From a virus: DNA of 64,000 nucleotides. The notes beneath the pieces are model-generated. The model saw nothing but the letters and a program-made list of their open reading frames with translations, was not told where the DNA came from and did no database searches. A program made the translations under genes and the position numbers. Numbering within the stretch: position 1 is the first letter of the stretch; each line of letters begins with the position of its first letter. Below are positions 6,471 to 63,797 of the stretch, in pieces. The stretch lies in IMG/VR virus record IMGVR_UViG_3300036820_000003, positions 32,001 to 96,000 of that record; one strand, 5' to 3'.

Positions 6471-6683
6471 CTAAGAGTACTTCACCCAGTACTTGCCGTG
6501 CTTGTCCACGTGGACCGCATCCACGTTGTCCATTCCCTTCTCCGCCATCAGCTGCTCGGGGCTGACCTCCACCGCGCCGTGCGGCTTGCCGGTCATCGTC
6601 TGGACAGTCCTGCCGTGGGCGTTCCTCGCGCCGCCGTGCAGCTTCCGGGCCAGCTCGACCGCCTTCTTGGTCTTCTCGAACAT
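6471..6683 (-). CDS. Hypothetical protein
   Basis: GGAAGGG RBS. Confidence 0.65.
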   Translation of the reverse strand: MFEKTKKAVELARKLHGGARNAHGRTVQTMTGKPHGAVEVSPEQLMAEKGMDNVDAVHVDKHGKYWVKYS

Positions 6684-7569: not shown

Positions 7570-7880
7570 TCCGACTCGTACCTGTAGAAGCCACTGCCAC
7601 AGCAGTCCTCGCCGAAGCGAAGTCCCAGATGCGCGTACTCGGCCTGCCACACGCGCAGCTCGTCCGAGGTCTGCGCGTAGCTGATCTCGACTCGCTCGAA
7701 CTTCGCCTTGATCTCGTCAAACTCCCGAGTCGCCTTGTCCTTCTCGGACTCGACCTCGGCGAGGCAGCAGGCTGTGTCCTCGTCGAGCCGCTCGTTGCGC
7801 TGATCCTGCGGAGTCTCGTCGACGGGCTGGTCTGCCTTCGAGGCCGAGCCGGAGGTCGCGCGCTGCTTGCGTTCTGACAT
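7566..7880 (-). CDS. Coiled-coil hypothetical protein
   Basis: AAGGAAGG RBS. Confidence 0.65.
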   Translation of the reverse strand: MSERKQRATSGSASKADQPVDETPQDQRNERLDEDTACCLAEVESEKDKATREFDEIKAKFERVEISYAQTSDELRVWQAEYAHLGLRFGEDCCGSGFYRYESE

Positions 7881-8043
7881 CTTCCGTCCTTCCTTGCGTG
7901 CGTTGCATGTGCTTGCAGCCGCAGGCCCGGAGGGGCCTGCGGACGTCGCCGGGTGCCTCCGGGAGGTCGCGCGGGCGTGGCGCGCGGTTGCGCACGCGCG
8001 TTAAGCGCGCGTGCGCACGGCCTCCTGCGAGGCTCCCGCCGGC

Positions 8044-8331
8044 TCACTCGATATCGCGCTCTTCCGGATCGGCCGGAGACGCGGGAGTCGAGGGGTCGGT
8101 GTCGTACCTGACGATCTGCGAGGCCTGGGTGGCGTTAACGAGCCGCAGGATCTGAACCAGCTCCTCGTAGCGAGCCCTGGCGGCGTTCCGCAGCGGAATG
8201 TAGTGATCCCGCAGGCTCCGCTGCGCGTCCAGGTAGGTCATGCGGTCCTCCGCCCGGGTGCGGATGATCTCCGGCTCGGGGCCGCTCCAGTCAACCTGAA
8301 AGCCCTCGGCCGGGACGCGGGTGCCGCTCAT
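8044..8331 (-). CDS. Hypothetical protein
   Basis: ATGA overlap start MSGTRVP. Confidence 0.6.
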   Translation of the reverse strand: MSGTRVPAEGFQVDWSGPEPEIIRTRAEDRMTYLDAQRSLRDHYIPLRNAARARYEELVQILRLVNATQASQIVRYDTDPSTPASPADPEERDIE

Positions 8332-8420
8332 CGGGTGAGCCTGGCGAAGACCGGGATGAAGAGCACCGCCAGATTGGCGGCGATAAGAGACACCCCGATC
8401 TCGATTCCGATCGTGAACAT
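8328..8420 (-). CDS. Small membrane peptide (30 aa)
   Basis: MFTIGIEIGVSLIAANLAVLFIPVFARLTR; GGAGG RBS. Confidence 0.55.
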   Translation of the reverse strand: MFTIGIEIGVSLIAANLAVLFIPVFARLTR

Positions 8421-8429
8421 GCGAGCCTC

Positions 8430-8612
8430 CTAGCGCTCGAACTTCACCAGATAGTCGATTATCTCTATGCGAGGCTGCCTGCACAGCTTTGCGATTGCGG
8501 ATTTCTTCTCGTCCGCCTTCAGCGTCGTCCAGCTGTTGAACATCTTCTCGACCCGCTTCTTCAGGTCCCTCTCGCTGAGTGCGTCCAGCTCCCGGCGCTT
8601 GGCGTCAGACAT
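8430..8612 (-). CDS. Hypothetical protein
   Basis: AAGGAG RBS. Confidence 0.6.
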   Translation of the reverse strand: MSDAKRRELDALSERDLKKRVEKMFNSWTTLKADEKKSAIAKLCRQPRIEIIDYLVKFER

Positions 8613-8640
8613 TGTCGCTCCTTGCTCCTTTCCTTCCGGG

Positions 8641-8847
8641 CTACCCGAGAGACTGAAGCCACCTGCGCAGGCTGGCGGCGTCCCAGGTGCCGGTCTTGTC
8701 GTAAATCCCCTGACGGTATCTCTTGATCATCGCCACCGGAAGCTGCAGCAATTCCGAGATCTGCCCGTCGGTCTTCTCATGGGCCGCGTGTCGCGCGATT
8801 TGACTTTCGCGGGCCGTGAAGATATGATTGGTGTTGGCGGCGGTCAT
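8641..8847 (-). CDS. Hypothetical protein, possible HTH
   Basis: TDGQISELLQLPVAMIKRYR resembles an HTH. Confidence 0.55.
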   Translation of the reverse strand: MTAANTNHIFTARESQIARHAAHEKTDGQISELLQLPVAMIKRYRQGIYDKTGTWDAASLRRWLQSLG

Positions 8848-9191
8848 GTGACGGTGAACTTGCCTTCCTCAATGCAGGTAAGCGTGGCGATCCACGCGTG
8901 CGCGGACCTTGAGTAGCCGAGTGCCCTCGCGTCCGGATGACCCTCAACGTCGAGGCTCATCCCGGGCTTGAGACTGATGACCCGGATGTAGGCGACCAAA
9001 CCCCAGCCGCCCGAAGCGGCTGATGTCACGGGCACCTCCCCCGGAAGCTGGAGTATGACCAGCTCCGGGTATTTGAACACCGCCTCCCGGAACACCGTGA
9101 TCGACCCGTCGTATGGCGGCAGCGCGATGAGCGCGTCTGTCACGGGCTCCGAACCGGGTTCCGGTTCCGGGGTGATTGCAGGCTCTGACAT
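8844..9191 (-). CDS. Hypothetical protein
   Basis: AAGGAGG RBS. Confidence 0.65.
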   Translation of the reverse strand: MSEPAITPEPEPGSEPVTDALIALPPYDGSITVFREAVFKYPELVILQLPGEVPVTSAASGGWGLVAYIRVISLKPGMSLDVEGHPDARALGYSRSAHAWIATLTCIEEGKFTVT

Positions 9192-9265
9192 CGGGCCTCC
9201 TTTCGAACTTCGGTCCTGAGGACCGGACCCGGCACGGCGCAGCCGTGCCGGATCCCGCGCTCAGG

Positions 9266-10066
9266 CTACTTGTTCCTGCTCCTAGCCCGGATGATAGTAA
9301 CCCCGACCGCCATCATCAGCGCTACGAAGAACACCCAGAGGTCGTAGCCCTGGGCTTTCAGGCCCTGATCCCCGAACATCCCACTAATCGCCGCGCTCGA
9401 CATCAGCATGCCAGCCATAGCGAGAATCATCTGAAGATGCCTGTCGTAGCTCTTGCTGCGCCGGACTAGCTCCGTGACCTTGGCGTCGGGCTTTTCCAGC
9501 TCGCTCCTGAAGCCTGACGGCATATCCGGCAGATTAACCAGCAGCGCCTTCAGGTCGTCGTCGAAGCGCGCCTCCATGCACGCCTCCATCCGCGCGGTGA
9601 ACTCCTCGACCTTGAGACGGCCCTCGGCGAGGCATTGCTCCAGGTAAGCGCGGTAGCGCTCGCGGGTTTCGTCTTTGACGAAGATGCGCGTTTCCTTCAC
9701 TTCCGGTTCCTTTTCCGATTCTTGAACTGCTTTCAGATCGTCCACCAGGCTCCGCGCTGCCACCACAGCCAGATGGTCAATCTTGAACTGCCCGCCTTTA
9801 CGAACTGCTTCCATCAATTGCCAGACCACCTCGAAACCCCGGCGTATTTCCGGGTCGTCGAGTGTGAATCGGGTAATATCCAGTCCAGGCGTCACCAGCA
9901 GAATGCCCTTATCGACCCAGTGGGCGTGCATAATCGACTGGATCTGCTTATCTTGCTCTTGATTCGCCCGGATGATCCGACTCCCTTCGGGAGTCGCCCA
10001 GCTGTAAACGACAGCGCCGTTCTGAATGTCACGACGAACGACCCAGTAGCGAATGCCTGACGTCAT
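9266..10066 (-). CDS. DUF1707 (SHOCT-like) domain membrane protein
   Basis: RERYRAYLEQCLAEGRLKVEEFTARME...LKALLVNLP plus two C-terminal TM segments. Confidence 0.75.
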   Translation of the reverse strand: MTSGIRYWVVRRDIQNGAVVYSWATPEGSRIIRANQEQDKQIQSIMHAHWVDKGILLVTPGLDITRFTLDDPEIRRGFEVVWQLMEAVRKGGQFKIDHLAVVAARSLVDDLKAVQESEKEPEVKETRIFVKDETRERYRAYLEQCLAEGRLKVEEFTARMEACMEARFDDDLKALLVNLPDMPSGFRSELEKPDAKVTELVRRSKSYDRHLQMILAMAGMLMSSAAISGMFGDQGLKAQGYDLWVFFVALMMAVGVTIIRARSRNK

Positions 10067-10134
10067 CCTTCCTCCTTCCGAGGCCGACTAGCCCGCGCCG
10101 CGCTCAGCCGATTCCGGGCTGAGCGCGACGCCGG

Positions 10135-10317
10135 TCATCCGGATTCGCGAGCGAGCGCTCCCGCAATTCGCCCGATCAGGCTGAAACGAGGGATCGGCTT
10201 CCTGAAGGAGGCTGACCTCGCCGTCTTCCGGGCCTCCCGTGCGAGCCTGGCGTTGCGTCCGCGCTGGAGCGCCTCGGCGTGTTTCAGCCGGGTCAGCTCC
10301 ATGTGGATGTCGTTCAT
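10135..10317 (-). CDS. Small basic protein
   Basis: GGAAGGAA RBS before MNDIHMEL. Confidence 0.6.
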   Translation of the reverse strand: MNDIHMELTRLKHAEALQRGRNARLAREARKTARSASFRKPIPRFSLIGRIAGALARESG

Positions 10318-10327
10318 GATTTCCTTC

Positions 10328-10402
10328 CTAGGTGAAGTACAGCAGCACGCCCACGACGACAAGCGCGATGAACAGCCACGCGATCCTCTGCCAGTCATTC
10401 AT
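10328..10402 (-). CDS. Small membrane peptide (24 aa)
   Basis: MNDWQRIAWLFIALVVVGVLLYFT; one-base TGATG overlap with upstream stop. Confidence 0.55.
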   Translation of the reverse strand: MNDWQRIAWLFIALVVVGVLLYFT

Positions 10403-10581
10403 CAGCAGTCTCCAAGCGTCGCGGAGATCTCGCAGTACGATCTCCCCTGGCCCCCGCCCGTCCCCGGGCTGCCCATGAGCATCAGCCCGGCGATCAGGCA
10501 GCCGAGCGCCCCGGCGAGGATGATGATCGAGATGACGCCGCCCCGCCGGCTCTCCTGCTCGTCCCCCGGGGCGGGGGTCAC
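10402..10581 (-). CDS. Small membrane protein
   Basis: One TM segment; GTGA overlap start. Confidence 0.55.
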   Translation of the reverse strand: MTPAPGDEQESRRGGVISIIILAGALGCLIAGLMLMGSPGTGGGQGRSYCEISATLGDC

Positions 10582-10799
10582 GGGATGCTCCAGCTGATGA
10601 CGTACTGGAACACGTCCACGCGCAGCGGCCGGGCGACGATCGTGATGTGACCGTCTCGCCACGGGATGTACACGCCCCTCGCCCCGGCTGAGTGCGATCC
10701 GGACACCTGGCCCCGAGCCTGAGGCCGGGGCATCCCCAGAGCGAACAGATGGTCGACTGCGGCCTGGAAGGTGTCGCAATCCTTGGAGCCCGAGGTCAT
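10578..10799 (-). CDS. Small protein (paralog family B candidate)
   Basis: ATGA overlap; AVDHLFALGMPRPQAR. Confidence 0.6.
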   Translation of the reverse strand: MTSGSKDCDTFQAAVDHLFALGMPRPQARGQVSGSHSAGARGVYIPWRDGHITIVARPLRVDVFQYVISWSIP

Positions 10800-11014
10800 G
10801 ACGGAGGCCCTTCGGTGATGACGAGCCTGCGACGGAAGCCAGCCCGTCGCACTTCGACTCGCACGACGTTCCCGGATCTGAGTGAGATCCGGCCCGGCTG
10901 GCCGAGGACGGCGGCGGCGACCATGTCCGTCGCGTCCCTCCCCGAAAGCCCCAGTCCCGTCAGGTAGCCGGACGCCGCCGCCTCCTCCGCGACCGGGAAC
11001 ATGCGCTCGCTCAT
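10796..11014 (-). CDS. Small protein (paralog family B candidate)
   Basis: YLTGLGLSGRDATDMVAAA. Confidence 0.6.
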   Translation of the reverse strand: MSERMFPVAEEAAASGYLTGLGLSGRDATDMVAAAVLGQPGRISLRSGNVVRVEVRRAGFRRRLVITEGPPS

Positions 11015-37796: not shown

Positions 37797-38174
37797 TCAC
37801 AGCAGGCTCGGGTTGCGCCTTTGCTGTAAATACAGCATACCACGCCCAGCCGGCGCGAAGCGTCGGCCGAGGGCTCGGGGGGCTTCAATTGCAACTGGAA
37901 AACAGCCGCGTAAACAGCCACCCGCTTCTCGACTCCGGAGCATCCCAGCGAAAATCTCGTCCGGATCATCCACCGGATATGCCGGACTGACGGAGTATCC
38001 CCAGGCGGACGCCGCCATCCCCTCCAGAACTACCGGATCCTCCCGGGATCCGGCGTCCAGCTCCTCGCGCACTCGCCTGTCCATCCAGGTCACGGCCTCA
38101 ACCCAGCGTTCACTGGTGACGACTTCGAGGGGAGGAGAATCCGGGTCCGGCATCCCACGCCACAGCCAGCTCAT
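37797..38174 (-). CDS. Hypothetical protein
   Basis: GAAGGAGA RBS. Confidence 0.55.
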   Translation of the reverse strand: MSWLWRGMPDPDSPPLEVVTSERWVEAVTWMDRRVREELDAGSREDPVVLEGMAASAWGYSVSPAYPVDDPDEIFAGMLRSREAGGCLRGCFPVAIEAPRALGRRFAPAGRGMLYLQQRRNPSLL

Positions 38175-46820: not shown

Positions 46821-47420
46821 GTGAGCGACGATGTGAGGGAGAGGATCTCAGCGCTGCGCGCTGAGGTCCTTTTGCTTGATGAGAGGCTCAGGGCGGCCGT
46901 AGCTCATCAATCGAAAACCAGTTCGAATGGAGGAGGGGGAGGAGGGGGAGGTAAGATCTCGCATTCTCCCCCGCCGTGGAACGCGGCGGCCGGACTGTGT
47001 CGGATGGATCTGCACGCGCTGGCGCGGGAGATCGAGCGAACGTGGAGATCGGAAGGGCGACTCAGGGTCAAGGCGCGCGGGGGTTCCGACGCGAACACGC
47101 GCGGGGCTCTGGAGGCGCTGGACGCGCTTTTGCTCGTAGTGCCGGGATGGCTGGTGGCGGACTCGATGCGTCAGCTTGCGAAGTGGGGTCTGCGAGCCGG
47201 GGTGATCCTGGGGGATCTGGAGCAGCCGCGTCGGCTGCCGGGGGATGTGGCGTGTCCTTATTGTTCCATGAAGACCTTGCGCATGTGGGCGGGAGCTGGC
47301 ATAGTTCGCTGTGTCAACCCCTCGTGCACGATGGAAGACGGCGGAAAGGCCGTCGCGACTCCGGAGTGGATCGACGGGGAGGGAATTCGACTGACATGGC
47401 AGGACGGGAGAGTGCTGTGA
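46821..47420 (+). CDS. Conserved phage protein with C-terminal zinc ribbon
   Basis: CPYC...CVNPSC. Confidence 0.7.
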   Translation: MSDDVRERISALRAEVLLLDERLRAAVAHQSKTSSNGGGGGGGGKISHSPPPWNAAAGLCRMDLHALAREIERTWRSEGRLRVKARGGSDANTRGALEALDALLLVVPGWLVADSMRQLAKWGLRAGVILGDLEQPRRLPGDVACPYCSMKTLRMWAGAGIVRCVNPSCTMEDGGKAVATPEWIDGEGIRLTWQDGRVL

Positions 47421-47974
47421 CTCAAGGAGCGGGGGACGGGGGGGCTTCAATTGCAACTGTTCCTCCGGAAGGGGTTCGGGAGGGCGACTTCCGGATTGTG
47501 CGAGTGAGGGGAATCGGCGGATGGGGGATATCCGTCGGTCAGATGCTGAACGGAGAGCGACTCTCGTGGCACGATCACGCTGAAGTGTTCCTGGGAGTTG
47601 TCGGGAACGCGAATGCGACGGCGAGCGCGTATCCGGATCGTCGAGGAATCCAGCTGTATGAGAGAGCTGAGCAGGAAGTCTGGTCGACGGGGGTTATCGA
47701 GCTTTCGGACGCTCAGCGGACGGGAATCGTCAACTGGTGCCTGGGGCATCCCTGCGTCCAGTACGGCTGGCTGGACTACGCGGCGCTGATCCTGCATCGA
47801 CTGGGGATGAAGGATCCTGCTTTGCGACGCTATATCGCTGCATCGGGACACGATATCTGCTCGCAATATGCGTCGCTGGCGTATCTGCACGGGGGCGGAA
47901 TGGATCTTTTTCCGGGGGAGTGGGAAGGGTACGTGACTCCGGAGATGCTGGCCGGGAGGGTGGGACAGGCGTGA
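47417..47974 (+). CDS. Permuted papain-like NlpC/P60 (YaeF/YiiX-type) amidase
   Basis: EGDF, HAEV, YGWLDY, ICSQY, YVTP in permuted His-before-Cys order. Confidence 0.7.
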   Translation: MTQGAGDGGASIATVPPEGVREGDFRIVRVRGIGGWGISVGQMLNGERLSWHDHAEVFLGVVGNANATASAYPDRRGIQLYERAEQEVWSTGVIELSDAQRTGIVNWCLGHPCVQYGWLDYAALILHRLGMKDPALRRYIAASGHDICSQYASLAYLHGGGMDLFPGEWEGYVTPEMLAGRVGQA

Positions 47975-49927: not shown

Positions 49928-50641
49928 GTGACGGATGACAAGATTGTCTCGGTTCCGGTCGGGGAACTCAAGTTCTGGCCGGGGAATCCTCGAGTGGGTG
50001 ACCTGGACGCGATCCGGGAGTCGATTGAGGCGCACGGGGTGTACAAGCCTCTGCTGGTGCATCGAGGGACCGGACGAGTCATGGTCGGAAACAATACCCT
50101 GAAGGCCGCCGTGGAACTGGGGATGGAGCGAGTCCCGGTGGTGTACAAGGACGTCGACGATGATGTGGCGCGTCGCATCATGCTGGTCGACAATCGGACG
50201 TCGGATCGCTCGGACTACGACGAGGAACTGCTGCGAGCGGCGCTGCTGGCGGTGGCCGACGATTTCTCCGGGACGGGTTATCACGACGACGACGAGGACG
50301 TCGCGGCGCTGCTGGCCATTGTGATGGCGGCGGACGAGTACAGCTTCGCGGGAGGGGCTGACGAGGAGGAAGTGCTGCTCCTCGACGAGGTGCGAACCGG
50401 AGCTGACTGGGCCGAGCTGCCCCAGCAGGAGGCCGCTCGGGCGGAACGGCAGGCTCAGCAGACTCCCTCGGCCGTCAAGGGGCTGCGCGAGATCATGCTG
50501 GTGTATCCGGTGGACGAGCATCGCGAGATGATTTCCGTGTTGGAAGGGCTCAAGCGGGTGTGGGGGGATCTGCGATATCCGCAGATTGTGGCGCGGGCTC
50601 TGCGGGAGGCGGCCGAGCGCGGCGGCGTGGTAGGCTTGTAA
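49928..50641 (+). CDS. ParB/Srx N-terminal-domain protein
   Basis: L...PGNPR.GD...IRESI..HG...PLLV.......GN....AA..LG...VPV. Confidence 0.88.
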   Translation: MTDDKIVSVPVGELKFWPGNPRVGDLDAIRESIEAHGVYKPLLVHRGTGRVMVGNNTLKAAVELGMERVPVVYKDVDDDVARRIMLVDNRTSDRSDYDEELLRAALLAVADDFSGTGYHDDDEDVAALLAIVMAADEYSFAGGADEEEVLLLDEVRTGADWAELPQQEAARAERQAQQTPSAVKGLREIMLVYPVDEHREMISVLEGLKRVWGDLRYPQIVARALREAAERGGVVGL

Positions 50642-50642
50642 G

Positions 50643-51566
50643 GTGCAAGCTACGGTGCCTGACGACAGGCTGATGGCGGATTATTTTTCGTTCCATCGGA
50701 TTCAGATTGCGAATAGGGACGTCGATCCCGTTTACCCCGTCTTGAAGGCGGTGGGGGACAGGCTGTCGTTGAGCACCGAGGATCGCCTGCGTCTGGTATT
50801 CCTGCATGTGGCCTACTACGACATCGGGTCCGCGCTGACGGCGTTCGAGATAACGGGGGACGTGCACTACTGGTTCAAGTGCACCGAGACTAAACTGCCG
50901 TGCGGAACGGAACGTCGTAGGCATCGCATGGGCGACAACCTGCGCAATCACCTAGCATCTTTGCAGACTAGGGCGTTCGGCTGGCAAGGACTGGAACCGT
51001 GGCTCACGCACGGTCTGGACGATGACGCCCGAGGTAATTGGAAAACGGTGTCAGAGCGACTCATGCAGGTGGACGGAAACGGTCGCTGGGCGGCATTCAA
51101 GACCTGCGAGATGCTCAGGGAAGTGTGCGGGCTGCCGTTGGAGGCCCCGGACATGGGACACGCGAACAGTTCGGGTCCTCGCAAGGGACTGGGGTTGCTG
51201 TTTGCGGAGGCGCGAGTGGCGGGGAACTCGGCTGAGGTGATAGCGGGATTGGATAGGCTGTCGGTTAGGCTGGTCGAGGAGCTGCGGGGGGCCGGGGCCG
51301 AGGCGTCGCTTGCGACCGCGGAGACGACGCTGTGCGACTTTCACAGTATGTGGAATGGCCGGTACTATCCGGGGCTTGATATCGATGTGATGCACGAGCA
51401 GATCGCGATGTCCCCGATGAGCCCGGAGATGCGACGTGAGGCCTATCTGGCGCGCGAGGCGGCGCTGCCCCTGGCTTACCTCGGTGAAGAGGGCGGCTGG
51501 CAGGGCGTCGACGTCAAGCGGAAGCGGATTTACCGGATGACGGGGGAGATTGTCACTCGTGGCTGA
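50643..51566 (+). CDS. Amino acid:DNA transferase (alpha-glutamyl/putrescinyl-thymine pyrophosphorylase type)
   Basis: D.DPVY, ERR.HR, GRWAAFK..E, GPRKGL, ETTLCDF, GRYYPG.DID. Confidence 0.8.
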   Translation: MQATVPDDRLMADYFSFHRIQIANRDVDPVYPVLKAVGDRLSLSTEDRLRLVFLHVAYYDIGSALTAFEITGDVHYWFKCTETKLPCGTERRRHRMGDNLRNHLASLQTRAFGWQGLEPWLTHGLDDDARGNWKTVSERLMQVDGNGRWAAFKTCEMLREVCGLPLEAPDMGHANSSGPRKGLGLLFAEARVAGNSAEVIAGLDRLSVRLVEELRGAGAEASLATAETTLCDFHSMWNGRYYPGLDIDVMHEQIAMSPMSPEMRREAYLAREAALPLAYLGEEGGWQGVDVKRKRIYRMTGEIVTRG

Positions 51567-52434
51567 TGTGGGGGGCTGGACGTTCGGGGCGGAGCTGGAA
51601 TGGCCGGATGTGGACCGGCGGGCCGAGCTGGGGGGAGGCTGGGCGTGGTCGGTGACGGACTACACCGTCGTCAACTCGGACGGGACCGCCAACGATCCGC
51701 GCGGTGAGCTGAATCGCTGGGGCGGGGAGCTGAACACGCCGGTTTGCGGATCGGTCGAGGAGCTGGGCGAGCGCGCGGGAGAGATGCGGGCGCAGTTGAA
51801 GCCTGGTCACAACTACCGGTCGAATCTCCACATTCACGTGGCGGCTCCGGAATTTGCGGACGTCGAAAATCTGAAGAGAATCGCTGAATTCTCGCGTCGG
51901 GAGCTGCCAGGGGCGCTCAAGATGATGGACCCGCTGAACGGGCTTTTCTCGGGTCTGACGGACGAGGCGGAAGTGGCGGGGGCGCGGAAGCGAATGGCGC
52001 ACTCGGAGCGGAGTCGTCACTATTTTGTGTCGGATGCTCGGCACGCTCGTCGGATGGAGGCTCGGGGGATTGAGGAGATGCTGCGAGCCGAGGTTCCGAT
52101 GAGTCGCGAAGGGGCTCCGTGCTGGGCGCTGGCGTCGCGGGAAGCCGTCAATTTGCGTTCGATGCGGAAACACGGGACGATCGAGCTGCGCTGTTTCGCG
52201 GCGGACGGATCGGGCGAGAACGTGTGGGCGGCGGCGAGCTTCAGTCGGGACTGGCTGGCGACGGCGCTTGAGGGAGGCGAGGTGTTCGAGCTTCCCTACT
52301 TCTACTCGCTGCCGATTCAGCCTGCTTTCGAGCTGAAGCTCGAAAGAGGCTGGGAGTGGACGAACCTCAAGCACAATCGTCGGAACGTGGTGCGCGGACG
52401 GCTGGCTGAGATGAGGGGCCTGTGCGAATCGTAG
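51550..52434 (+). CDS. Amidoligase (COOH-NH2 ligase, glutamate-cysteine-ligase-like)
   Basis: TFGAELEW, ELNTP, LHIHV, AVNL, HGTIELRCF. Confidence 0.8.
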   Translation: MSLVADVGGWTFGAELEWPDVDRRAELGGGWAWSVTDYTVVNSDGTANDPRGELNRWGGELNTPVCGSVEELGERAGEMRAQLKPGHNYRSNLHIHVAAPEFADVENLKRIAEFSRRELPGALKMMDPLNGLFSGLTDEAEVAGARKRMAHSERSRHYFVSDARHARRMEARGIEEMLRAEVPMSREGAPCWALASREAVNLRSMRKHGTIELRCFAADGSGENVWAAASFSRDWLATALEGGEVFELPYFYSLPIQPAFELKLERGWEWTNLKHNRRNVVRGRLAEMRGLCES

Positions 52435-52862
52435 CCGTCTGCACGGGGAACGTCGCCCGGAGCCCCGCCCTGGAGTGCCTGCTGCAGGAAGGGCTGGCGG
52501 GGGTGGAAGTGCGCTCGGCGGGGGTGGGCGACAAGGCCGTCGCCGGGCTGCGGATGAAGCCCTACATGCGGATGATCCTGGGGAGAGAGGGTTTCGGCGA
52601 CTTCGCGGAATCCCATCGCTCGTTCGTGCTGCGAGGCGAGGAAGCGATCGCACCGGATCTTTTCGTCGCGGTGAGCCGAGTGCACGTGCGGAAGCTTGGC
52701 GGGATGTTTCCCGAGGTGCCGGTTCTCTTGTGCGATCCGATTATCCCGGATCCGGCTTTCGGCGGGCTGGATGCCTACGAGGAAGCGTGGAACTTGATTC
52801 AGACGGCCTCGGATGATATGATTCGCAGAATCGAATCCGAGGACTGGGGGAGCTGCGAGTGA
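52422..52862 (+). CDS. Low-molecular-weight phosphotyrosine phosphatase / ArsC family protein
   Basis: VCTGNVARS (CX5R) P-loop and IPDP general-acid motif. Confidence 0.88.
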   Translation: MRIVAVCTGNVARSPALECLLQEGLAGVEVRSAGVGDKAVAGLRMKPYMRMILGREGFGDFAESHRSFVLRGEEAIAPDLFVAVSRVHVRKLGGMFPEVPVLLCDPIIPDPAFGGLDAYEEAWNLIQTASDDMIRRIESEDWGSCE

Positions 52863-53701
52863 AGATTCTGGTGGTGGGGGCGGGAATCGCCGGGTCGTGC
52901 GTGGCTCGACTGGGGTCCGAGCGCGGTCACGAGATGAGGGTGATCGCGCGAGGCGATGAGCCGGATTCGCTCGCGGCGACGGCGGTGCTGCGTCGAGGTT
53001 ATCACTCAGGGGGGTCGCTTGAGTCCTGGGACTACGCGATCCAGTGCTATGAGCGCTGGGGCGTTCGAATGGCGAGAGGCGGGGCGGTTTCCAGCTATCG
53101 GAGACTGCTGGCGGAACCTCGTGCTGATGCGGACTGGACCCTGATTGATCCGGCTGCCCCCCTGGTGCAGGCCGATGTGAAAAGGGAAGTGGTGTCGGCG
53201 CATGGCGGCCGGGTGTGGTTCGGACCGGGGGCGGGGGAGGCGGGGGACGCCGTTGTGGTGGCCTGTGGCGCTCGCGGCGGGCTGTTGCGGCCGGCGGGCG
53301 CTGTTGGCGGCGCGATCGTTACCTATGGCGTTACGTGGGTCCACGCGCCGGAGGCTTTGAAGGAGCCCGAGGTTATGAGGGTGTATCAGTACGCCCCTTA
53401 TCGAACTCTGCTGGCGGGTGTGGCCGGAGGAAAGGCGCGCGTCGGTAGTTCCTCGGCTGCGGGAGAGGAAAAGGCGGTGGAGCAGGGGCGGAAGATGCTC
53501 CAGACCGCGTGGGATCTGGGCTGGCTGACGACTCTTGACGAGTGGGAAATGCGAGTGGGGGCGCGTCTGAAGAGTCAGGAAGTCTGGTGGCGCGAAGGCG
53601 ACGGTCACTGGGAAATCGGCGGATTTCATCGAACGGGGTACGCTTTGGCTCCCGGGGCCGCTCGCGATGTGCTGGACGACATCGAGAAGTCAGCTCTGTG
53701 A
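52859..53701 (+). CDS. FAD-dependent oxidoreductase (glycine oxidase/DAO-like)
   Basis: ILVVGAGIAG, AVVVACG, GGFHRTGYALAPG. Confidence 0.82.
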   Translation: MKILVVGAGIAGSCVARLGSERGHEMRVIARGDEPDSLAATAVLRRGYHSGGSLESWDYAIQCYERWGVRMARGGAVSSYRRLLAEPRADADWTLIDPAAPLVQADVKREVVSAHGGRVWFGPGAGEAGDAVVVACGARGGLLRPAGAVGGAIVTYGVTWVHAPEALKEPEVMRVYQYAPYRTLLAGVAGGKARVGSSSAAGEEKAVEQGRKMLQTAWDLGWLTTLDEWEMRVGARLKSQEVWWREGDGHWEIGGFHRTGYALAPGAARDVLDDIEKSAL

Positions 53702-53707
53702 TTTGAT

Positions 53708-53736
53708 TTGACAGGCTCTTTTTTTTACGCTAGATT
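53708..53736 (+). promoter_or_regulatory. Sigma-A-type promoter, leaderless
   Basis: TTGACA-N17-TAGATT, 6 nt before ATG 53743. Confidence 0.8.
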
Positions 53737-53742
53737 TTGCTT

Positions 53743-54315
53743 ATGGATCTCGTTTATCTGGCCGGGGCTCCCGCCGTCGGCAAGTCGACTCTGATGGCCA
53801 GGCTGACTGAGGGCGCTGAGCGGGTGGCTCGAGCTGACGTGAAGCTGGTGCCCTACGACGAGCTGAGGGTTGCGGGCGAGGTTGTCGGGGCGGAGATCGG
53901 GAAGCGTCGGGTGAACTTCCCGGGGACTGATTCGCTTGCGATGAACGCTCTGCCGAACGTCGCTAAATGGCTCGACGCGAAGATGTTCGACGTGGTGTGC
54001 GCGGAGGGGGATCGTCTGACGCACGTGCGATTCTTTGGCTCGGCGGCGGACGCCGGGTACTCGGTGCACGTTTTCCTGCTGCGAGCGCCAATGTCGGTGC
54101 TGGATCGGCGATGCGAGGCGCGAGGGTCGAACCAGAGTCGGAGCTGGCGGCTCAGCCGGGTGACTCTGGGCGAGCGGGTGGCGGCCTGGGCCGAGGCCGA
54201 GGACAGGATCTCGATGCACTACCTCGATTCTCAGAGACCTGTCACGGAGCTGGCCGAGGAAGTGCGACGGGCTGTGCCCGCGATGGAGATTCTGCGTGAG
54301 CGGGTGGCTGGCTGA
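53743..54315 (+). CDS. P-loop nucleotide kinase (putative 5-hydroxymethyluracil DNA kinase)
   Basis: YLAGAPAVGKST, EGDRL, R..RC..RGS.Q; context next to the transferase and TET/JBP genes. Confidence 0.75.
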   Translation: MDLVYLAGAPAVGKSTLMARLTEGAERVARADVKLVPYDELRVAGEVVGAEIGKRRVNFPGTDSLAMNALPNVAKWLDAKMFDVVCAEGDRLTHVRFFGSAADAGYSVHVFLLRAPMSVLDRRCEARGSNQSRSWRLSRVTLGERVAAWAEAEDRISMHYLDSQRPVTELAEEVRRAVPAMEILRERVAG

Positions 54316-55574
54316 TGGCTGCCGCCGCTGTTGTGAGGACCCCGGGAGTGCGACTGGGCTATCGAGTTGCGGACTCCATTATCGAGCGCGACATTGAAGG
54401 TCGGACCTTGGGGGAGGACGACTACGACTGGCTTCTCACGGGCGGACCGCTGATGGTCAGGAGTCCGGAGGGGGCTCCGGTGGCGTGCTATCTGCCAGGG
54501 GTTTTGAAGGGCGTCATGGCCGAGGTCGACGCTTACCGGCTGCTGCATCCCCTGCACACGATGATGACGAACAATCGAGGCAAGGCGTCGGGTACGCGAC
54601 GGATCGCCCGGGGGGACGGGGACGGGACGAGGAGCGACTCCGTCTCGATGTCGAGTCCCACTATCGGGTCGGCGGATCCAGGGTCGGTGTACCGCTACTG
54701 TCGCATGACGGAGTGGACCGGGGCGCATCTGCCGGAGTGGGAGGCGCTGGCTCCCCTGTTCCGGGTGATTGCGAGTCATCTTGAAGAGCGAGTTCCGGAG
54801 CGATACAACGCCCAGATGGAGTACGTCCGGAAGACGAATGAAGCGTGGGTGGTGCCGGGAACGCCGTTCACGACGATCACGGTGAATAACAGTTACTCCA
54901 CCGGGGTGCACAAGGATCAGGGCGATCTGGAGGCCGGGTTCTCGACGCTGGCGTGCGTGCGTCGCGGCGAGTACTCGGGCGGCGTGCTGGTCATGCCGCA
55001 GTATAGGTTCGGCGTGGACATGCAAGACGGTGATCTTTTGCTGATGGACGCGCACCAGTGGCACGGGAACACGCGAATGACGTGCGCCTGCGGCGAGCGG
55101 ATTTTCAATCGATTCTGCGGGGTATGCGGCGCGGAGCGGATTTCGCTGGTGTGCTACTATCGGACTCGGATGGCGGAATGCGGGAGCCCTGCGGACGAGC
55201 TGGAAAGAGCGCAGGTAAACACCGAGAAGCGATCCCAGCCGCGCGTCGGACAGGATATCATTGACGCTGCCGCGTCAGTGATGCCGATTCCGATTGCAAA
55301 TCCTGACCCCGCCCCTGATGACGGGGGGGCTTCAATTGCAACTGTGCCTGCGGCGCCGATTGTCGACGAACTTGAGGCTCCCGCCAAGAGGCGCGGTCGT
55401 CCCAAGAAGCAGGTCGGGGTGCTCGACGTTGAGGTTGAGGTTGAGGCCGCGAAGCCGGAACCTGTCGTCAAGCGTCGGGGTCGGCCGCGCAAGGTCGCTG
55501 AGCCTGATAAGATCGCAGTGGCCAAGGCCGATTTGATGAAGTTTGATCCCGTGACCGGTGAGCCTTTGGAGTGA
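54315..55574 (+). CDS. TET/JBP-family 2OG-Fe(II) dioxygenase with C-terminal AT-hooks
   Basis: FTTITVN, HKD, GG.L, DGD.L..DAH.WHGN, ERISLVCYYR; tail KRRGRPKK and KRRGRPRK. Confidence 0.85.
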   Translation: MAAAAVVRTPGVRLGYRVADSIIERDIEGRTLGEDDYDWLLTGGPLMVRSPEGAPVACYLPGVLKGVMAEVDAYRLLHPLHTMMTNNRGKASGTRRIARGDGDGTRSDSVSMSSPTIGSADPGSVYRYCRMTEWTGAHLPEWEALAPLFRVIASHLEERVPERYNAQMEYVRKTNEAWVVPGTPFTTITVNNSYSTGVHKDQGDLEAGFSTLACVRRGEYSGGVLVMPQYRFGVDMQDGDLLLMDAHQWHGNTRMTCACGERIFNRFCGVCGAERISLVCYYRTRMAECGSPADELERAQVNTEKRSQPRVGQDIIDAAASVMPIPIANPDPAPDDGGASIATVPAAPIVDELEAPAKRRGRPKKQVGVLDVEVEVEAAKPEPVVKRRGRPRKVAEPDKIAVAKADLMKFDPVTGEPLE

Positions 55575-55577
55575 GGA

Positions 55578-56120
55578 GTGAGTGGAATGGGTCGTCGAAC
55601 CGAAACGATGGAACGCGACGCTAAGATGTACTTGCGTCACACCAACAACATCCCGCACGACGCGATCGCGGCTGAGTTCGGGGTGTCGCTTGCTACTGTC
55701 GCGACGGGGATTCGACGGGCCATCCAGGACACCTTCAGGCTGTCGGCTGAGGAAGAGCGCCAGGTCGTGGACGATAGACTTTTGTATTTGGAGCGTCGTC
55801 TGCGGGTGATGGCCTCCAATAAGCACTATCGCGTTTCGGTTTCAGGGAAGGTCGTCGTCGATCCGATGACCGGGGAGCCGTTGCTGGACGACGAGCCGGA
55901 GTATCGGGCTCTGATGGCCATCTCGAAGATCGAGGGGCAGCGCAGCAAGCTTCTCGGACTCGACATGCCGGTGCGTCATCGAGTCGAGATCACCGACAAG
56001 ATGGACGAGGAGATCGAGAAGCTCGCGATGGAGCTTTCGATCCACGGCGCTGGCGAGAAGGTAGAGCCGGAGCTGCCGGTGGGGACGGGAGTCGTTGATG
56101 GTGACGGTAGCGACTCCTGA
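55578..56120 (+). CDS. terS: Terminase small subunit
   Basis: N-terminal HTH; position before terL; R.KLLGLD.P. Confidence 0.75.
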   Translation: MSGMGRRTETMERDAKMYLRHTNNIPHDAIAAEFGVSLATVATGIRRAIQDTFRLSAEEERQVVDDRLLYLERRLRVMASNKHYRVSVSGKVVVDPMTGEPLLDDEPEYRALMAISKIEGQRSKLLGLDMPVRHRVEITDKMDEEIEKLAMELSIHGAGEKVEPELPVGTGVVDGDGSDS

Positions 56121-57792
56121 TCCTGGGGGGGAAGAGCCGGAGAAAGGCGATCTGCCTCCGGATTGGCGGGATCTCAGTCCCGAGGCCAAGAAGGCCCTGC
56201 TGCATAAGCTCAAAGGGAAACACATCTCTTTGGGACTGGGCGGACCGCGCAAGTGGCGGGCTCTGGCGCGACCCAAGCAGCTGAGTCCAGATGATCCGGT
56301 GCATCATCTGCCGGACGGCAACGGGTTCGCCTGCGCGTGCGGGGCGCTGGATAGTAGCTTCAACATCTGGATGTTCATGGCCGGCCGAGGCTGCGGGAAG
56401 ACCTGGGCCGGATCCAACTGGATCATCGAGCAGGCGCTGAAAAACCCGGGGACCATGTGGGCCGTCGTGGCTCCCACCTTCCGCGACGTCCGAGTGACTT
56501 GCTTCGAGGGACCGTCTGGGATACGCCGTCAGCTAGAACCAGGTGAGGAAGACCAATGGCGACGCAACGAGTTGCGACTCGACCTGGTGAACGGCTCGAT
56601 TCTCTACGGGTACTCGGCTGACCAGCCTGAGCGACTTCGCGGGAGTAATCTTTCAGGTGCTTGGTGTGACGAGATGGGCTCGTGGCAATATGAGGAGACC
56701 TGGTACGAAGGGCTGGTTCCCGCTCTGCGTATTGGCGAGCATCCCCGTGTGATGGTAACCACCACTCCTCGTCCCACCAAGCTGGTGCGCGATCTGTACG
56801 GACGTCGCGACGGGACGGTCCACATCACCACCGCCTCGACCTGGGAGAACGCCGCAAACCTTTCCGCCGCAGCTCTTGACGAACTACGTCGTCGGTACGA
56901 GGGAACGCGCCTGGGTCGTCAGGAGCTTGAAGGCGAGCTGCTGGAGGACCTTGAGGGGGCTTTGTGGAAGCGATCCGACATCGACGCCGCGCGAGTGCGG
57001 CTGGGGGATGTGCCGGATCTGATCCGGGTGGTTGTCGGGATTGACCCGGCTGTCACCTCGACCGAAGAGAGTGACGAGACCGGAATCATCGTCGCGGGGG
57101 ATGACGGGCATGGTCACGGCTACGTGCTGGCGGACTACAGTATGAAAGGGTCGCCTGAGGCGTGCATGCGGGAGGCCGTCCGGGCATACAAGCGTCACGG
57201 GGCTGACTGCATTGTCGCGGAGGTGAACAACGGCGGTGACTTCATCGGAGCGGTGGTTCGTGCAGTTGACCCGGATGTGCCATATCACACCGTGCGAGCT
57301 AGCAGGGGTAAAGCTCTCCGAGCTGAGCCTGTTTCTGCTCTTGCTGAGCAACGGAGACTTCACCACGTAGGCAACCTGCCCGAGCTGGAAGATCAATTGT
57401 GCGCCTACGTGCCCGGAATAGGCGACTCGCCTGACCGGATGGACGCGCTGGTCTGGGCGGTCTTCGAGCTCAAGGGATTGAGTCAGGCCTCGTGGCTGTC
57501 GGCCTACGGAGCCTGTCGCTGCTCGGGATGCGACCACGTGTACACCTCGCATCTTAAGGAGTGCCCGCGCTGCCGGACGGCGAATCCGGCGGAGGCTGAG
57601 CGGATTGCGGCTCGGGAGCGAGATGAGCCGACGGAGGAGGAGCCTGTCGTGGGCGGCTGGGCGTCGGTTTATCACCTGCGTCGCTGCGAGCGAGGGCACG
57701 CCTACCCCGAGAAAATGGGGGCCGGGGGATGCCCGCGCTGCCGATCGGACGGACTGGGTTTTTTGAAGTCGGCCGGTCGCGCTGTGCGTTGA
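56095..57792 (+). CDS. terL: Terminase large subunit
   Basis: AGRGCGKT, W.DE, VMVTTTPR, R...ELEGE, VGIDPA, SPDRMDA. Confidence 0.95.
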   Translation: MMVTVATPDPGGEEPEKGDLPPDWRDLSPEAKKALLHKLKGKHISLGLGGPRKWRALARPKQLSPDDPVHHLPDGNGFACACGALDSSFNIWMFMAGRGCGKTWAGSNWIIEQALKNPGTMWAVVAPTFRDVRVTCFEGPSGIRRQLEPGEEDQWRRNELRLDLVNGSILYGYSADQPERLRGSNLSGAWCDEMGSWQYEETWYEGLVPALRIGEHPRVMVTTTPRPTKLVRDLYGRRDGTVHITTASTWENAANLSAAALDELRRRYEGTRLGRQELEGELLEDLEGALWKRSDIDAARVRLGDVPDLIRVVVGIDPAVTSTEESDETGIIVAGDDGHGHGYVLADYSMKGSPEACMREAVRAYKRHGADCIVAEVNNGGDFIGAVVRAVDPDVPYHTVRASRGKALRAEPVSALAEQRRLHHVGNLPELEDQLCAYVPGIGDSPDRMDALVWAVFELKGLSQASWLSAYGACRCSGCDHVYTSHLKECPRCRTANPAEAERIAARERDEPTEEEPVVGGWASVYHLRRCERGHAYPEKMGAGGCPRCRSDGLGFLKSAGRAVR

Positions 57793-63413: not shown

Positions 63414-63797
63414 ATGGCGAAAAAGATGAGTGTCGAACTGATCGACGACATTGACGGATCCGAGGCGTGCGAGAGCATTCGATTCTCGATTGACGGCGGC
63501 GTCTATGAAATCGATCTGAATGCCGTGCACGCGAGTGAAATGCGCGCGGCCTTCGAGGAATATGTCAAGGCCGGGCGCAGAGGATCGGCTATCCGGGCTG
63601 CGGCTCCCATCTCGACGGGGGATCGCGGAGGATCGCGTCGTCGGGCGGCTGATCCGCACAACGCGGTGGTGCGCGCGTGGGCGGCCGAGAAGGGACTGGC
63701 GTGCAACACGCACGGCAGGATTCCCGAGCACATTCTAGTTCTATTCAATAACATGAACAAGGATAGAGATAGGGATACGGAACATGGCGAACAGTGA
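63414..63797 (+). CDS. lsr2: Lsr2 nucleoid-associated protein
   Basis: MAKK..VELIDDIDG...F.IDG..YEIDL...VRAWA..KG....HGRIP. Confidence 0.95.
   Translation: MAKKMSVELIDDIDGSEACESIRFSIDGGVYEIDLNAVHASEMRAAFEEYVKAGRRGSAIRAAAPISTGDRGGSRRRAADPHNAVVRAWAAEKGLACNTHGRIPEHILVLFNNMNKDRDRDTEHGEQ

Follow-up and report, generated by a model that had tools for sequence, protein, structure and literature searches.

Why should a phage DNA dioxygenase carry two AT-hooks behind its catalytic fold? The question is raised by P0001, a TET/JBP-type enzyme encoded in the stretch of viral DNA analysed here, a 64,000-nt window that corresponds to bases 32001-96000 of the 129,940-bp, 63% GC IMG/VR virus record IMGVR_UViG_3300036820_000003 (G000; coordinates are those of the window unless a record is named). 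An initial annotation had suggested that the hooks steer the enzyme to scarce T-rich tracts in a GC-rich genome, that thymine is thereby favoured over 5-methylcytosine (5mC) as substrate, and that modification may be targeted to a packaging or terminal region. The explanation that we favour, and that we consider probable when taken as a whole, is a different one: a thymine dioxygenase with a zinc knuckle in its catalytic fold and a tail that serves for tethering and docking. After replication, this enzyme would oxidise thymine in the double-stranded DNA (dsDNA) of the phage to 5-hydroxymethyluracil (5hmU), which would feed an adjacent pathway made up of a kinase and an amino-acid:DNA transferase. 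Its last ~110 residues would be a disordered appendage, gained once in a small phage lineage, where two basic islands (here perfect AT-hooks) would act as flexible minor-groove tethers. Gripping short A/T runs spaced 100-350 bp apart, the hooks would raise residence on DNA but would not set base or site specificity, and an invariant hairpin peptide at the C-terminus would form a separate docking element.

The catalytic part of the protein comprises the following features:

54315..55574, + strand: TET/JBP-type (5mYOX) dioxygenase gene encoding P0001, 419 aa (open reading frame (ORF), Pfam, AlphaFold2 (AF2), Foldseek)
54909..54917, + strand: iron-binding HxD motif, H199-K-D201 (invariant in our alignments A1 and A2)
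55062..55064, + strand: distal iron-binding His, H250, in an HGNT motif (invariant in A1 and A2)
55083..55127, + strand: CxC-x8-CxxC insert with C257, C259, C268 and C271, a putative zinc knuckle (conservation, AF2)
55137..55145, + strand: 2-oxoglutarate (2OG)-binding Arg motif, R275-I-S277 (R275 and S277 invariant in A1 and A2)
55179..55277, + strand: invariant C289 and helical C-terminal extension, helices 292-307 and 313-321 (AF2 secondary structure; conservation of C289)

That P0001 is a TET/JBP dioxygenase, as the initial annotation had it, is borne out by profile and structure comparisons alike. Pfam Tet_JBP (PF12851) matches residues 127-283 with 77.8 bits against a cut-off of 34.9 (80.3 bits in the genome-wide search). 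An AF2 model built from 63 homologues has a predicted local distance difference test (pLDDT) score above 90 over residues 1-325, and with this model Foldseek returns CcTet (7vpn), NgTET1 (4lt5) and human TET2 (7ne3) at E-values of 8e-12 to 2e-11 and a probability of 1.0, at only ~13-16% sequence identity to the solved TET structures. H199, D201, H250 and R275 do not vary among the 63 aligned homologues, and the HGN motif of H250 is also found in distant cluster representatives. On our own reading R275-I-S277 would be the counterpart of the R-I-S of TET2, although this is read off a 0.1-bit alignment; in a profile search of PDB sequences the TET2 matches are marginal (E 0.04) and the alignment of the His-Arg loop is unreliable. 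A megablast search of the INPHARED phages gives no match, and tblastn yields only marine and other phage TETs at 24-35% identity.

What kind of TET/JBP enzyme is this? Experiments have defined a ParB-dependent subclass of phage 5mYOX enzymes that oxidise T and have links to kinases and amino-acid:DNA transferases (O'Toole et al., PNAS 2026, PMC13229309). They are reported to turn T into 5hmU on dsDNA only if the ParB partner is there; the authors suggest that this partner holds the enzyme on dsDNA, and a helical C-terminal extension is reported for the subclass. Among the characterised enzymes, the neighbouring base governs which sites are chosen (NTC/YTY for 5mYOX97, NTG/NTA for 5mYOX176) (all PMC13229309). 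Matched by description and context, P0001 shares with clade C1 of these enzymes (e.g. 5mYOX176/ParB176) the Tet_JBP fold, a co-located ParB-like gene, the linkage to kinase and transferase, a helical extension past the last conserved Cys, the lack of an adjacent C5-methyltransferase, and terminase genes next door; we infer that C289 is equivalent to C280 of 5mYOX176. It differs in adding a disordered tail of ~100 aa with two AT-hooks and a DPxTGEPLE peptide, which are absent from the paper's text. By analogy with that clade, P0001 is probably a ParB-linked phage thymine dioxygenase of the C1 type, a kind of enzyme that has been described only recently.

The case for thymine as the substrate draws on the operon in which the gene sits. 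Upstream of the TET gene lie:

49928-50641, + strand: ParB-like gene (ParB_N; Pfam/PHROGs)
50643-51566, + strand: amino-acid:DNA transferase, ADDT (PF18724, 62.3 bits)
51550-52434, + strand: amidoligase-like gene (Pfam/PHROGs)
52422-52862, + strand: low-molecular-weight-phosphatase-like gene (Pfam/PHROGs)
52859-53701, + strand: FAD oxidoreductase (Pfam/PHROGs)
53737..54315, + strand: P-loop kinase of the Ploopntkinase3 family, the 5-hydroxymethyldeoxyuridine (5-hmdU) DNA kinase type (PF18751, 104.5 bits)

The 3' end of the kinase gene abuts the TET start codon (54315), and the genes from ParB-like to TET form a co-oriented, mostly overlapping string in which TET comes last, followed by genes for a small-terminase-like protein (TerS-like) and the large terminase (TerL). 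This order is retained in three related IMG/VR contigs (L003, L004 and L005) and in part in dozens more; ParB-like genes adjoin TET in many related loci, and P0148, a natural fusion of kinase and TET, carries a Cys insert of the P0001 type. A ThyA-family gene, which could provide hydroxymethyl-dUMP before replication, is not found in the complete genome. Relatives of ~300 aa that lack any tail occupy the same operon context. Because of this operon and of its clade membership, both of them reasons independent of the AT-hooks, thymine is likely to be the substrate of P0001 and, by analogy, the best-supported one. The choice of thymine made in the initial annotation is thus backed by the ParB-like gene, the transferase, the kinase, the P0148 fusion and the missing ThyA-type hydroxymethylase, but the reason it gave is not: a preference for thymine over 5mC belongs to the clade and operon as a whole, tail-less relatives included, and need not be caused by the hooks.

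In phages M6, ViI and PaMx11, 5hmdU is incorporated at replication from a nucleotide pool supplied by a thymidylate-synthase homologue. Their hypermodification pathways (Lee et al. 2018, PMC5889632; 2021, PMC8989533) resemble the operon described here in bringing a 5-hmdU DNA kinase, an amino-acid:DNA transferase and a flavin oxidoreductase to bear on DNA; the difference is that here there is no ThyA-family gene and the dioxygenase would supply 5hmU post-replicatively. Among database proteins, TET-family domains are found fused to a Ploopntkinase3 kinase (P0148) and to a TET-associated glycosyltransferase, TAGT (P0212, P0274). Within the operon, 35 nt separate the FAD oxidoreductase gene from that of the kinase, and this gap holds a TTTTTTTTA run (53719-53727). 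The run is among the longest A/T runs of the genome; it may have a regulatory role inside the operon and divide it.

If the choice of base does not call for the hooks, what is the tail for? Its parts are:

55299..55535, + strand: disordered tail covering aa 329-407, with many Pro, Ala, Val and acidic residues and two islands of basic ones (AF2, composition)
55386..55409, + strand: AT-hook 1, KRRGRPKK, aa 358-365 (motif)
55470..55493, + strand: AT-hook 2, KRRGRPRK, aa 386-393 (motif)

Both hooks reported in the initial annotation are real as motifs and do lie in a tail that follows the catalytic fold. When the whole genome (129,940 bp) is translated in six frames, the pattern [KR][KR]RGRP[KR][KR] has exactly two matches, both in P0001 and spaced 28 residues apart, compared with a mean of 0.03 in 30 shuffles. 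As in HMGA-type AT-hooks (PF02178), an R-G-R-P core flanked by Lys/Arg is present in two copies within a disordered segment; unlike those, the hooks of P0001 belong to an enzyme of a prokaryotic virus and score below the Pfam threshold. The pLDDT falls below 50 at residues 329-331, 335-389, 393-396 and 398-407, so that hook 1 is contained in a low-confidence stretch, as is hook 2 apart from residues 390-392 (10-residue block means 45-46).

Most relatives end near residue 300, and tails are confined to a small group, P0002-P0019. In a tree of the catalytic core (a quick IQ-TREE run, midpoint-rooted only in order to draw it), a single clade with an SH-like approximate likelihood ratio test (SH-aLRT) value of 97 unites the 15 proteins that have a shared C-terminal motif at the end of their tail; P0019, which has a tail without the motif, is its sister, and the tail-less P0020-22 fall outside. 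Common to the tails of this clade are a linker that is acidic and rich in Pro, two basic patches at equivalent places and the C-terminal motif. A GRP core, on the other hand, is present in 3 of the 15 tail-bearing proteins of the tree, namely P0001 (two hooks), P0002 (KPGRPRK) and P0003 (PRGRPRK), all among the early branches, the crown group having RKPRGA and KRAPRKRA instead; among 149 more distant cluster representatives a basic GRP occurs once. Conservation of the tail in homologues, where the initial annotation had proposed to look, is therefore divided: the tail with its basic patches and terminal motif is kept in one clade, the GRP hook only in P0001-P0003. As far as can be judged from these alignments, the tail is conserved as a module and the canonical AT-hook is not, and the tail is a lineage-specific addition that arose once, in one small clade. 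A search with the tail alone recovered a single other protein, the unrelated metagenomic GH57 enzyme P0295, whose own tail holds at least seven near-identical KRRGRPKK hooks, which suggests that such arrays are a recurrent add-on rather than something unique to P0001.

Could the hooks nonetheless direct the enzyme to rare A/T-rich tracts, set thymine over 5mC and concentrate modification at packaging or terminal sites? Some features are what this model would lead us to expect: the hooks are a canonical pair with a spacing of 28 residues, A/T runs of at least six (W>=6, where W is A or T) number under half of what is seen in the shuffle (92 versus 217), and one conserved 20-mer containing AATT lies ~245 nt upstream of terS. 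Against the model, there are 1,125 runs with W>=4, or one in roughly 115 bp, which account for 10% of the A:T pairs; those with W>=6 hold 1.3%; and the runs are dispersed over the whole genome without clustering. Because these tracts hold so few A:T pairs, restricting the enzyme to them would leave most thymines untouched. Moreover, tail-less relatives stand in the same thymine-pathway context, canonical hooks are essentially missing from the wider family as well as from most of the tail-bearing proteins, and TET enzymes make their choice of base in the active site. Nor is there anything to connect the hooks with a terminal region or with one used for packaging. The two ends of the record (G000 1-127 and 129814-129940) form a 127-bp 'direct terminal repeat', but 127 bp is the usual largest assembler k-mer, which argues that this is probably the overlap of a circular assembly and not a pair of physical genome ends; the record ends are then arbitrary and no terminal region is defined. 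All told, we regard steering as very unlikely. The hooks look like a general, flexible DNA tether that would lengthen residence, the basic islands of the clade having been sharpened into AT-hooks in this phage.

The genome also encodes an Lsr2-like protein (63414-63797, + strand, 127 aa; PF11774, 79 bits) whose C-terminal HGRIP stands where mycobacterial Lsr2 has its minor-groove motif, RGRIP. It would be a second binder of AT-rich DNA, and might either rival the AT-hook tail or act together with it.

A second addition to P0001 lies inside the catalytic fold. The initial annotation had noted a Cys insert that follows the distal His and precedes the 2OG-binding Arg; the insert is real and sits where described in the fold, between H250 and R275-I-S277 in the hairpin formed by the distal-His strand and the Arg strand, but it is encoded 30-70 nt upstream of position 55156, where the annotated range began, so that this range covered the C-terminal extension and the tail only. 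From H to R there are 25 residues in P0001 versus 13-15 in most representatives of the family clusters (15 in human TET2, by our own residue counting), and the His-to-Arg segment, which in most of the wider family's cluster representatives has the form HGNTPI...ERIS and is 16-17 residues long, takes up 28. Because of this difference in His-to-Arg spacing, the Cys loop is, by sequence comparison, a true insertion of ~11 residues. CxCG-x7-9-CxxC is present in 120 of 120 closest homologues (~50% identity or more), but of 149 proteins that represent clusters at 50% identity just 8 have it; about five more of the 149 have different Cys/His inserts in the same loop. On this distribution the insert, like the tail, is a lineage-specific addition, and marks one subclade. 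The AF2 pLDDT over the insert is 96-98, and the pattern of four cysteines is probably that of a structural zinc knuckle that caps the hairpin; a zinc site in the CxC...CxxC loop would rigidify the hairpin between the distal-His and 2OG-Arg strands. Loci whose TET lacks the insert still adjoin kinases or ParB-like genes, from which it follows that the insert is not required for the pathway as such. The text of PMC13229309 nowhere mentions 'zinc', 'AT-hook' or these cysteines.

Domains appended to DNA-oxidising enzymes of this superfamily are familiar from eukaryotes. JBP1 has a J-DNA-binding domain, JBP2 a SWI2/SNF2 module, and TET1 and TET3 a CXXC domain, while the zinc sites of TET2 belong to a separate Cys-rich domain and not to a knuckle in the His-Arg hairpin. 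P0001 is like trypanosomatid JBP1/JBP2 and eukaryotic TET1-3 in belonging to a catalytic superfamily that oxidises the C5 methyl of pyrimidines in DNA and in having an appended DNA-targeting module; it differs in that two AT-hooks on a disordered tail, not a folded domain, make up this module.

Tail conservation at the protein level may mislead if the underlying DNA is itself under constraint, and one part of the tail-coding sequence appears to be a case in point:

55325..55344, + strand: 20-nt element GGGGGCTTCAATTGCAACTG, translated as GASIATV (identical copies, codon use)

Identical copies, all on the + strand, occur in the window at 37878-37897, 47440-47459 and 55325-55344, in L003 at 6566-6585 and in L004 at 9095-9114. 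The element lies in the TET tails of L003, L004 and L074, the last copy being the same site as that of L004 in a larger contig. Two palindromes, CAATTG and TTGCAA, overlap within the 20-mer, and the codons in which it is written end in A or T, a type that is rare in this genome. When L003 and L004 are compared, 15 of 15 codons are identical at the element versus a baseline of 55% elsewhere. The tail block GASIATVP(P) really does seem, from its codons, to be conserved at the DNA level. As to the two extra copies in G000, the one at 47440 stands at the start of an unannotated gene (~47405-47974) and the other adjoins a GCGTAAACAGC 11-mer. Candidate roles for GGGGGCTTCAATTGCAACTG are a packaging (pac) site, a TerS or ParB site, or a promoter; a sigma-70 consensus scan of 55100-55700 revealed no promoter-like site, and an Rfam scan of 55000-55800 nothing meaningful. 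Scanning metagenomes with an 18-mer recovered one true relative, L074, of the same lineage as L004; the other 17 matches were taken as chance, as they lack the gene set and all but a few lie on contigs of much lower GC content.

These data invite another interpretation, namely that the tail is mainly read-through of a DNA spacer holding cis sites for the terminase operon (pac, a TerS or ParB site, a late promoter), with peptide and hooks contributing little. The element is conserved as DNA within the tail ORF of three related phages, at 150-250 nt upstream of terS (~245 nt in G000), and recurs twice more in G000. In addition, the TET frame of L005 (7773-9302) stays open for ~130 codons past the catalytic core and runs across the start of terS, which it overlaps in another frame, with none of the conserved tail motifs. 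Against this, DPxTGEPL is kept at the C-terminus of the tail while synonymous sites vary, which implies that the protein is under selection; basic patches come back from tail to tail; and no member of the clade has lost the open frame. We therefore consider a mere spacer unlikely, and continue to read the tail as a tethering and docking appendage whose coding sequence may double as a site.

The docking part of that explanation concerns the C-terminus of P0001 and the genes that follow it:

55542..55571, + strand: C-terminal motif FDPVTGEPLE, aa 410-419 (clade consensus [VL][DN]PxTGEPLE)
55587..56120, + strand: TerS-like gene, whose ORF perhaps starts at 55578 (position, AF2, Foldseek)
55857-55883, + strand: internal hairpin motif of TerS, VDPMTGEPL, found in the protein as VVVDPMTGEPLLDD (shared motif)
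56095..57792, + strand: large terminase, TerL (Pfam Terminase_6N and Terminase_6C)

The C-terminal motif is present in 15 of the 16 long-tailed rows of alignment A1, P0019 being the one that lacks it, and AF2 models it with a pLDDT of 78, placing bridges at residues 410 and 417. Variation at the synonymous sites of the motif shows that it is the protein that is constrained. The neighbouring TerS-like gene lies directly upstream of TerL and overlaps it; its AF2 model consists of a helix-turn-helix and a helical hairpin, with a weak Foldseek match to the TerS of G20C (4xvn). In all six frames of the 130-kb genome the 8-residue DPxTGEPL occurs only twice, at the TET C-terminus and in this adjacent TerS-like protein, although the two proteins are otherwise unrelated. 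The pairing is also found in L004, the motif is present in 23 of 25 members of the TerS family, that family occurs on the same contigs as tail-bearing TETs, and in the AF2 model of TerS the motif sits at the tip of the core, a helix-hairpin-helix. An hhalign comparison of TET tail and TerS aligns the motif block only (the last 15 columns; E 7e-5).

One might conclude from this that the tail is chiefly a protein-docking device, its hairpin mimicking that of TerS and bringing the oxidase to the terminase-pac complex or to a ParB-like partner, so that oxidation is coupled to packaging. The restriction of the motif to the two neighbouring genes, its recurrence and its position on TerS would all fit. 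Three considerations temper this view: L005 keeps the TerS motif and has no TET motif; packaging motors far outpace TET turnover, making modification during translocation unlikely; and the shared motif could be just a favoured beta-turn. We find coupling to packaging by such a device distinctly unlikely as the tail's chief role; the shared DPxTGEPL may be a docking epitope or a mere favoured turn. A more elaborate variant would make the tail a three-part coupler, where a TerS-mimic hairpin docks on the terminase-pac complex or the ParB-like clamp, the hooks grip nearby DNA, and the 20-nt element is the pac or loading site of the assembly. This is a long shot; if true, the packaging site would be where modification begins or where it is checked.

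Two other accounts were rejected. A degenerate duplicate of the TerS N-terminus, suggested by SIATV versus SLATV and a similar motif spacing, fails in that hhalign aligned nothing but those last 15 columns and GASIATVP is a DNA-level element. A DNA repeat can be dismissed as well, the codons differing between TET and TerS copies and among phages. As further observations on the terminase genes, the C-terminal ~90 aa of TerL contain two CxxC...CxxC pairs (CSGC...CPRC and RRCERGH...CPRC), to all appearance a zinc-ribbon-like extension that would be unusual for TerL; and in some relatives the TerL match is split or starts ~1 kb past terS (L004 9779-12539, equivalent to L074 8679-11444; L005 10748-12124), which suggests an intein, intron or inserted gene.

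Several findings sit uneasily with a tethering thymine dioxygenase and should be set against it. The Pfam AT_hook model (PF02178, 13 positions) gives 13.2 bits, below its cut-off of 17.4; such a short model means that a sub-threshold score weighs little, but it follows that the AT-hook call rests on the motif and not on a hidden Markov model. Over its full length the tail is slightly acidic, with a net charge of -2. Most family members function without a tail, so tethering must be dispensable in general. Part of the tail's protein conservation (GASIATVP) is conservation of DNA, and selection on the tail may partly act on DNA in cis. Regarding the substrate, the genome does contain a C5-methyltransferase-like gene, which leaves 5mC as a possible substrate, and in vitro the characterised phage T-dioxygenases act on 5mC as well (PMC13229309).

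How seriously should we take 5mC, made by the phage's own methyltransferase-like protein, as the native substrate? The ORF in question (G000 8422-9093, 223 aa) has FCGGGG, PPC and ENV and scores 25 bits with Pfam DNA_methylase, against a cut-off of 22. It is short, however: only motifs I-VI are present, the match covers only positions 2-113 of 324 in the model, and C5-methyltransferases in which motifs VIII-X are missing or disrupted are inactive or weak (Burke et al., PMC8256090). It is also remote. Being the sole such ORF of the genome, it lies at 8.4 kb and TET at 86.7 kb, 78 kb apart, and no C5-methyltransferase-like ORF neighbours TET, which instead abuts a Ploopntkinase3-type kinase inside an amino-acid:DNA transferase operon. 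Clade C1 enzymes likewise lack adjacent C5-methyltransferase genes (PMC13229309). We judge 5mC to be a highly improbable native substrate, and keep to thymine. The region around this ORF, outside the window (G000 7720-10830; L002), encodes an N6/N4-methyltransferase-like ORF, the short C5-methyltransferase-like ORF and a dCMP deaminase beside a C-terminal fragment of a SNF2-type helicase.

The basic picture of the pathway stays as it was: the tail is an addition to a known, if recently characterised, kind of enzyme. Its interest lies in what it may reveal about that kind. Phage post-replicative thymine dioxygenases were biochemically defined only in 2025-2026, and how they are held on dsDNA and why many of them need a ParB-like helper are still open questions. 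A natural variant with a DNA-gripping tail of its own would be a useful test case for whether residence time limits such enzymes, and could provide a more robust tool for writing 5hmU. The Cys4 insert of the subclade offers a target for mutagenesis and a marker for classification, and the motif shared with TerS, together with the DNA element hidden in the tail-coding sequence, gives cheap leads on how modification and packaging may be coordinated.

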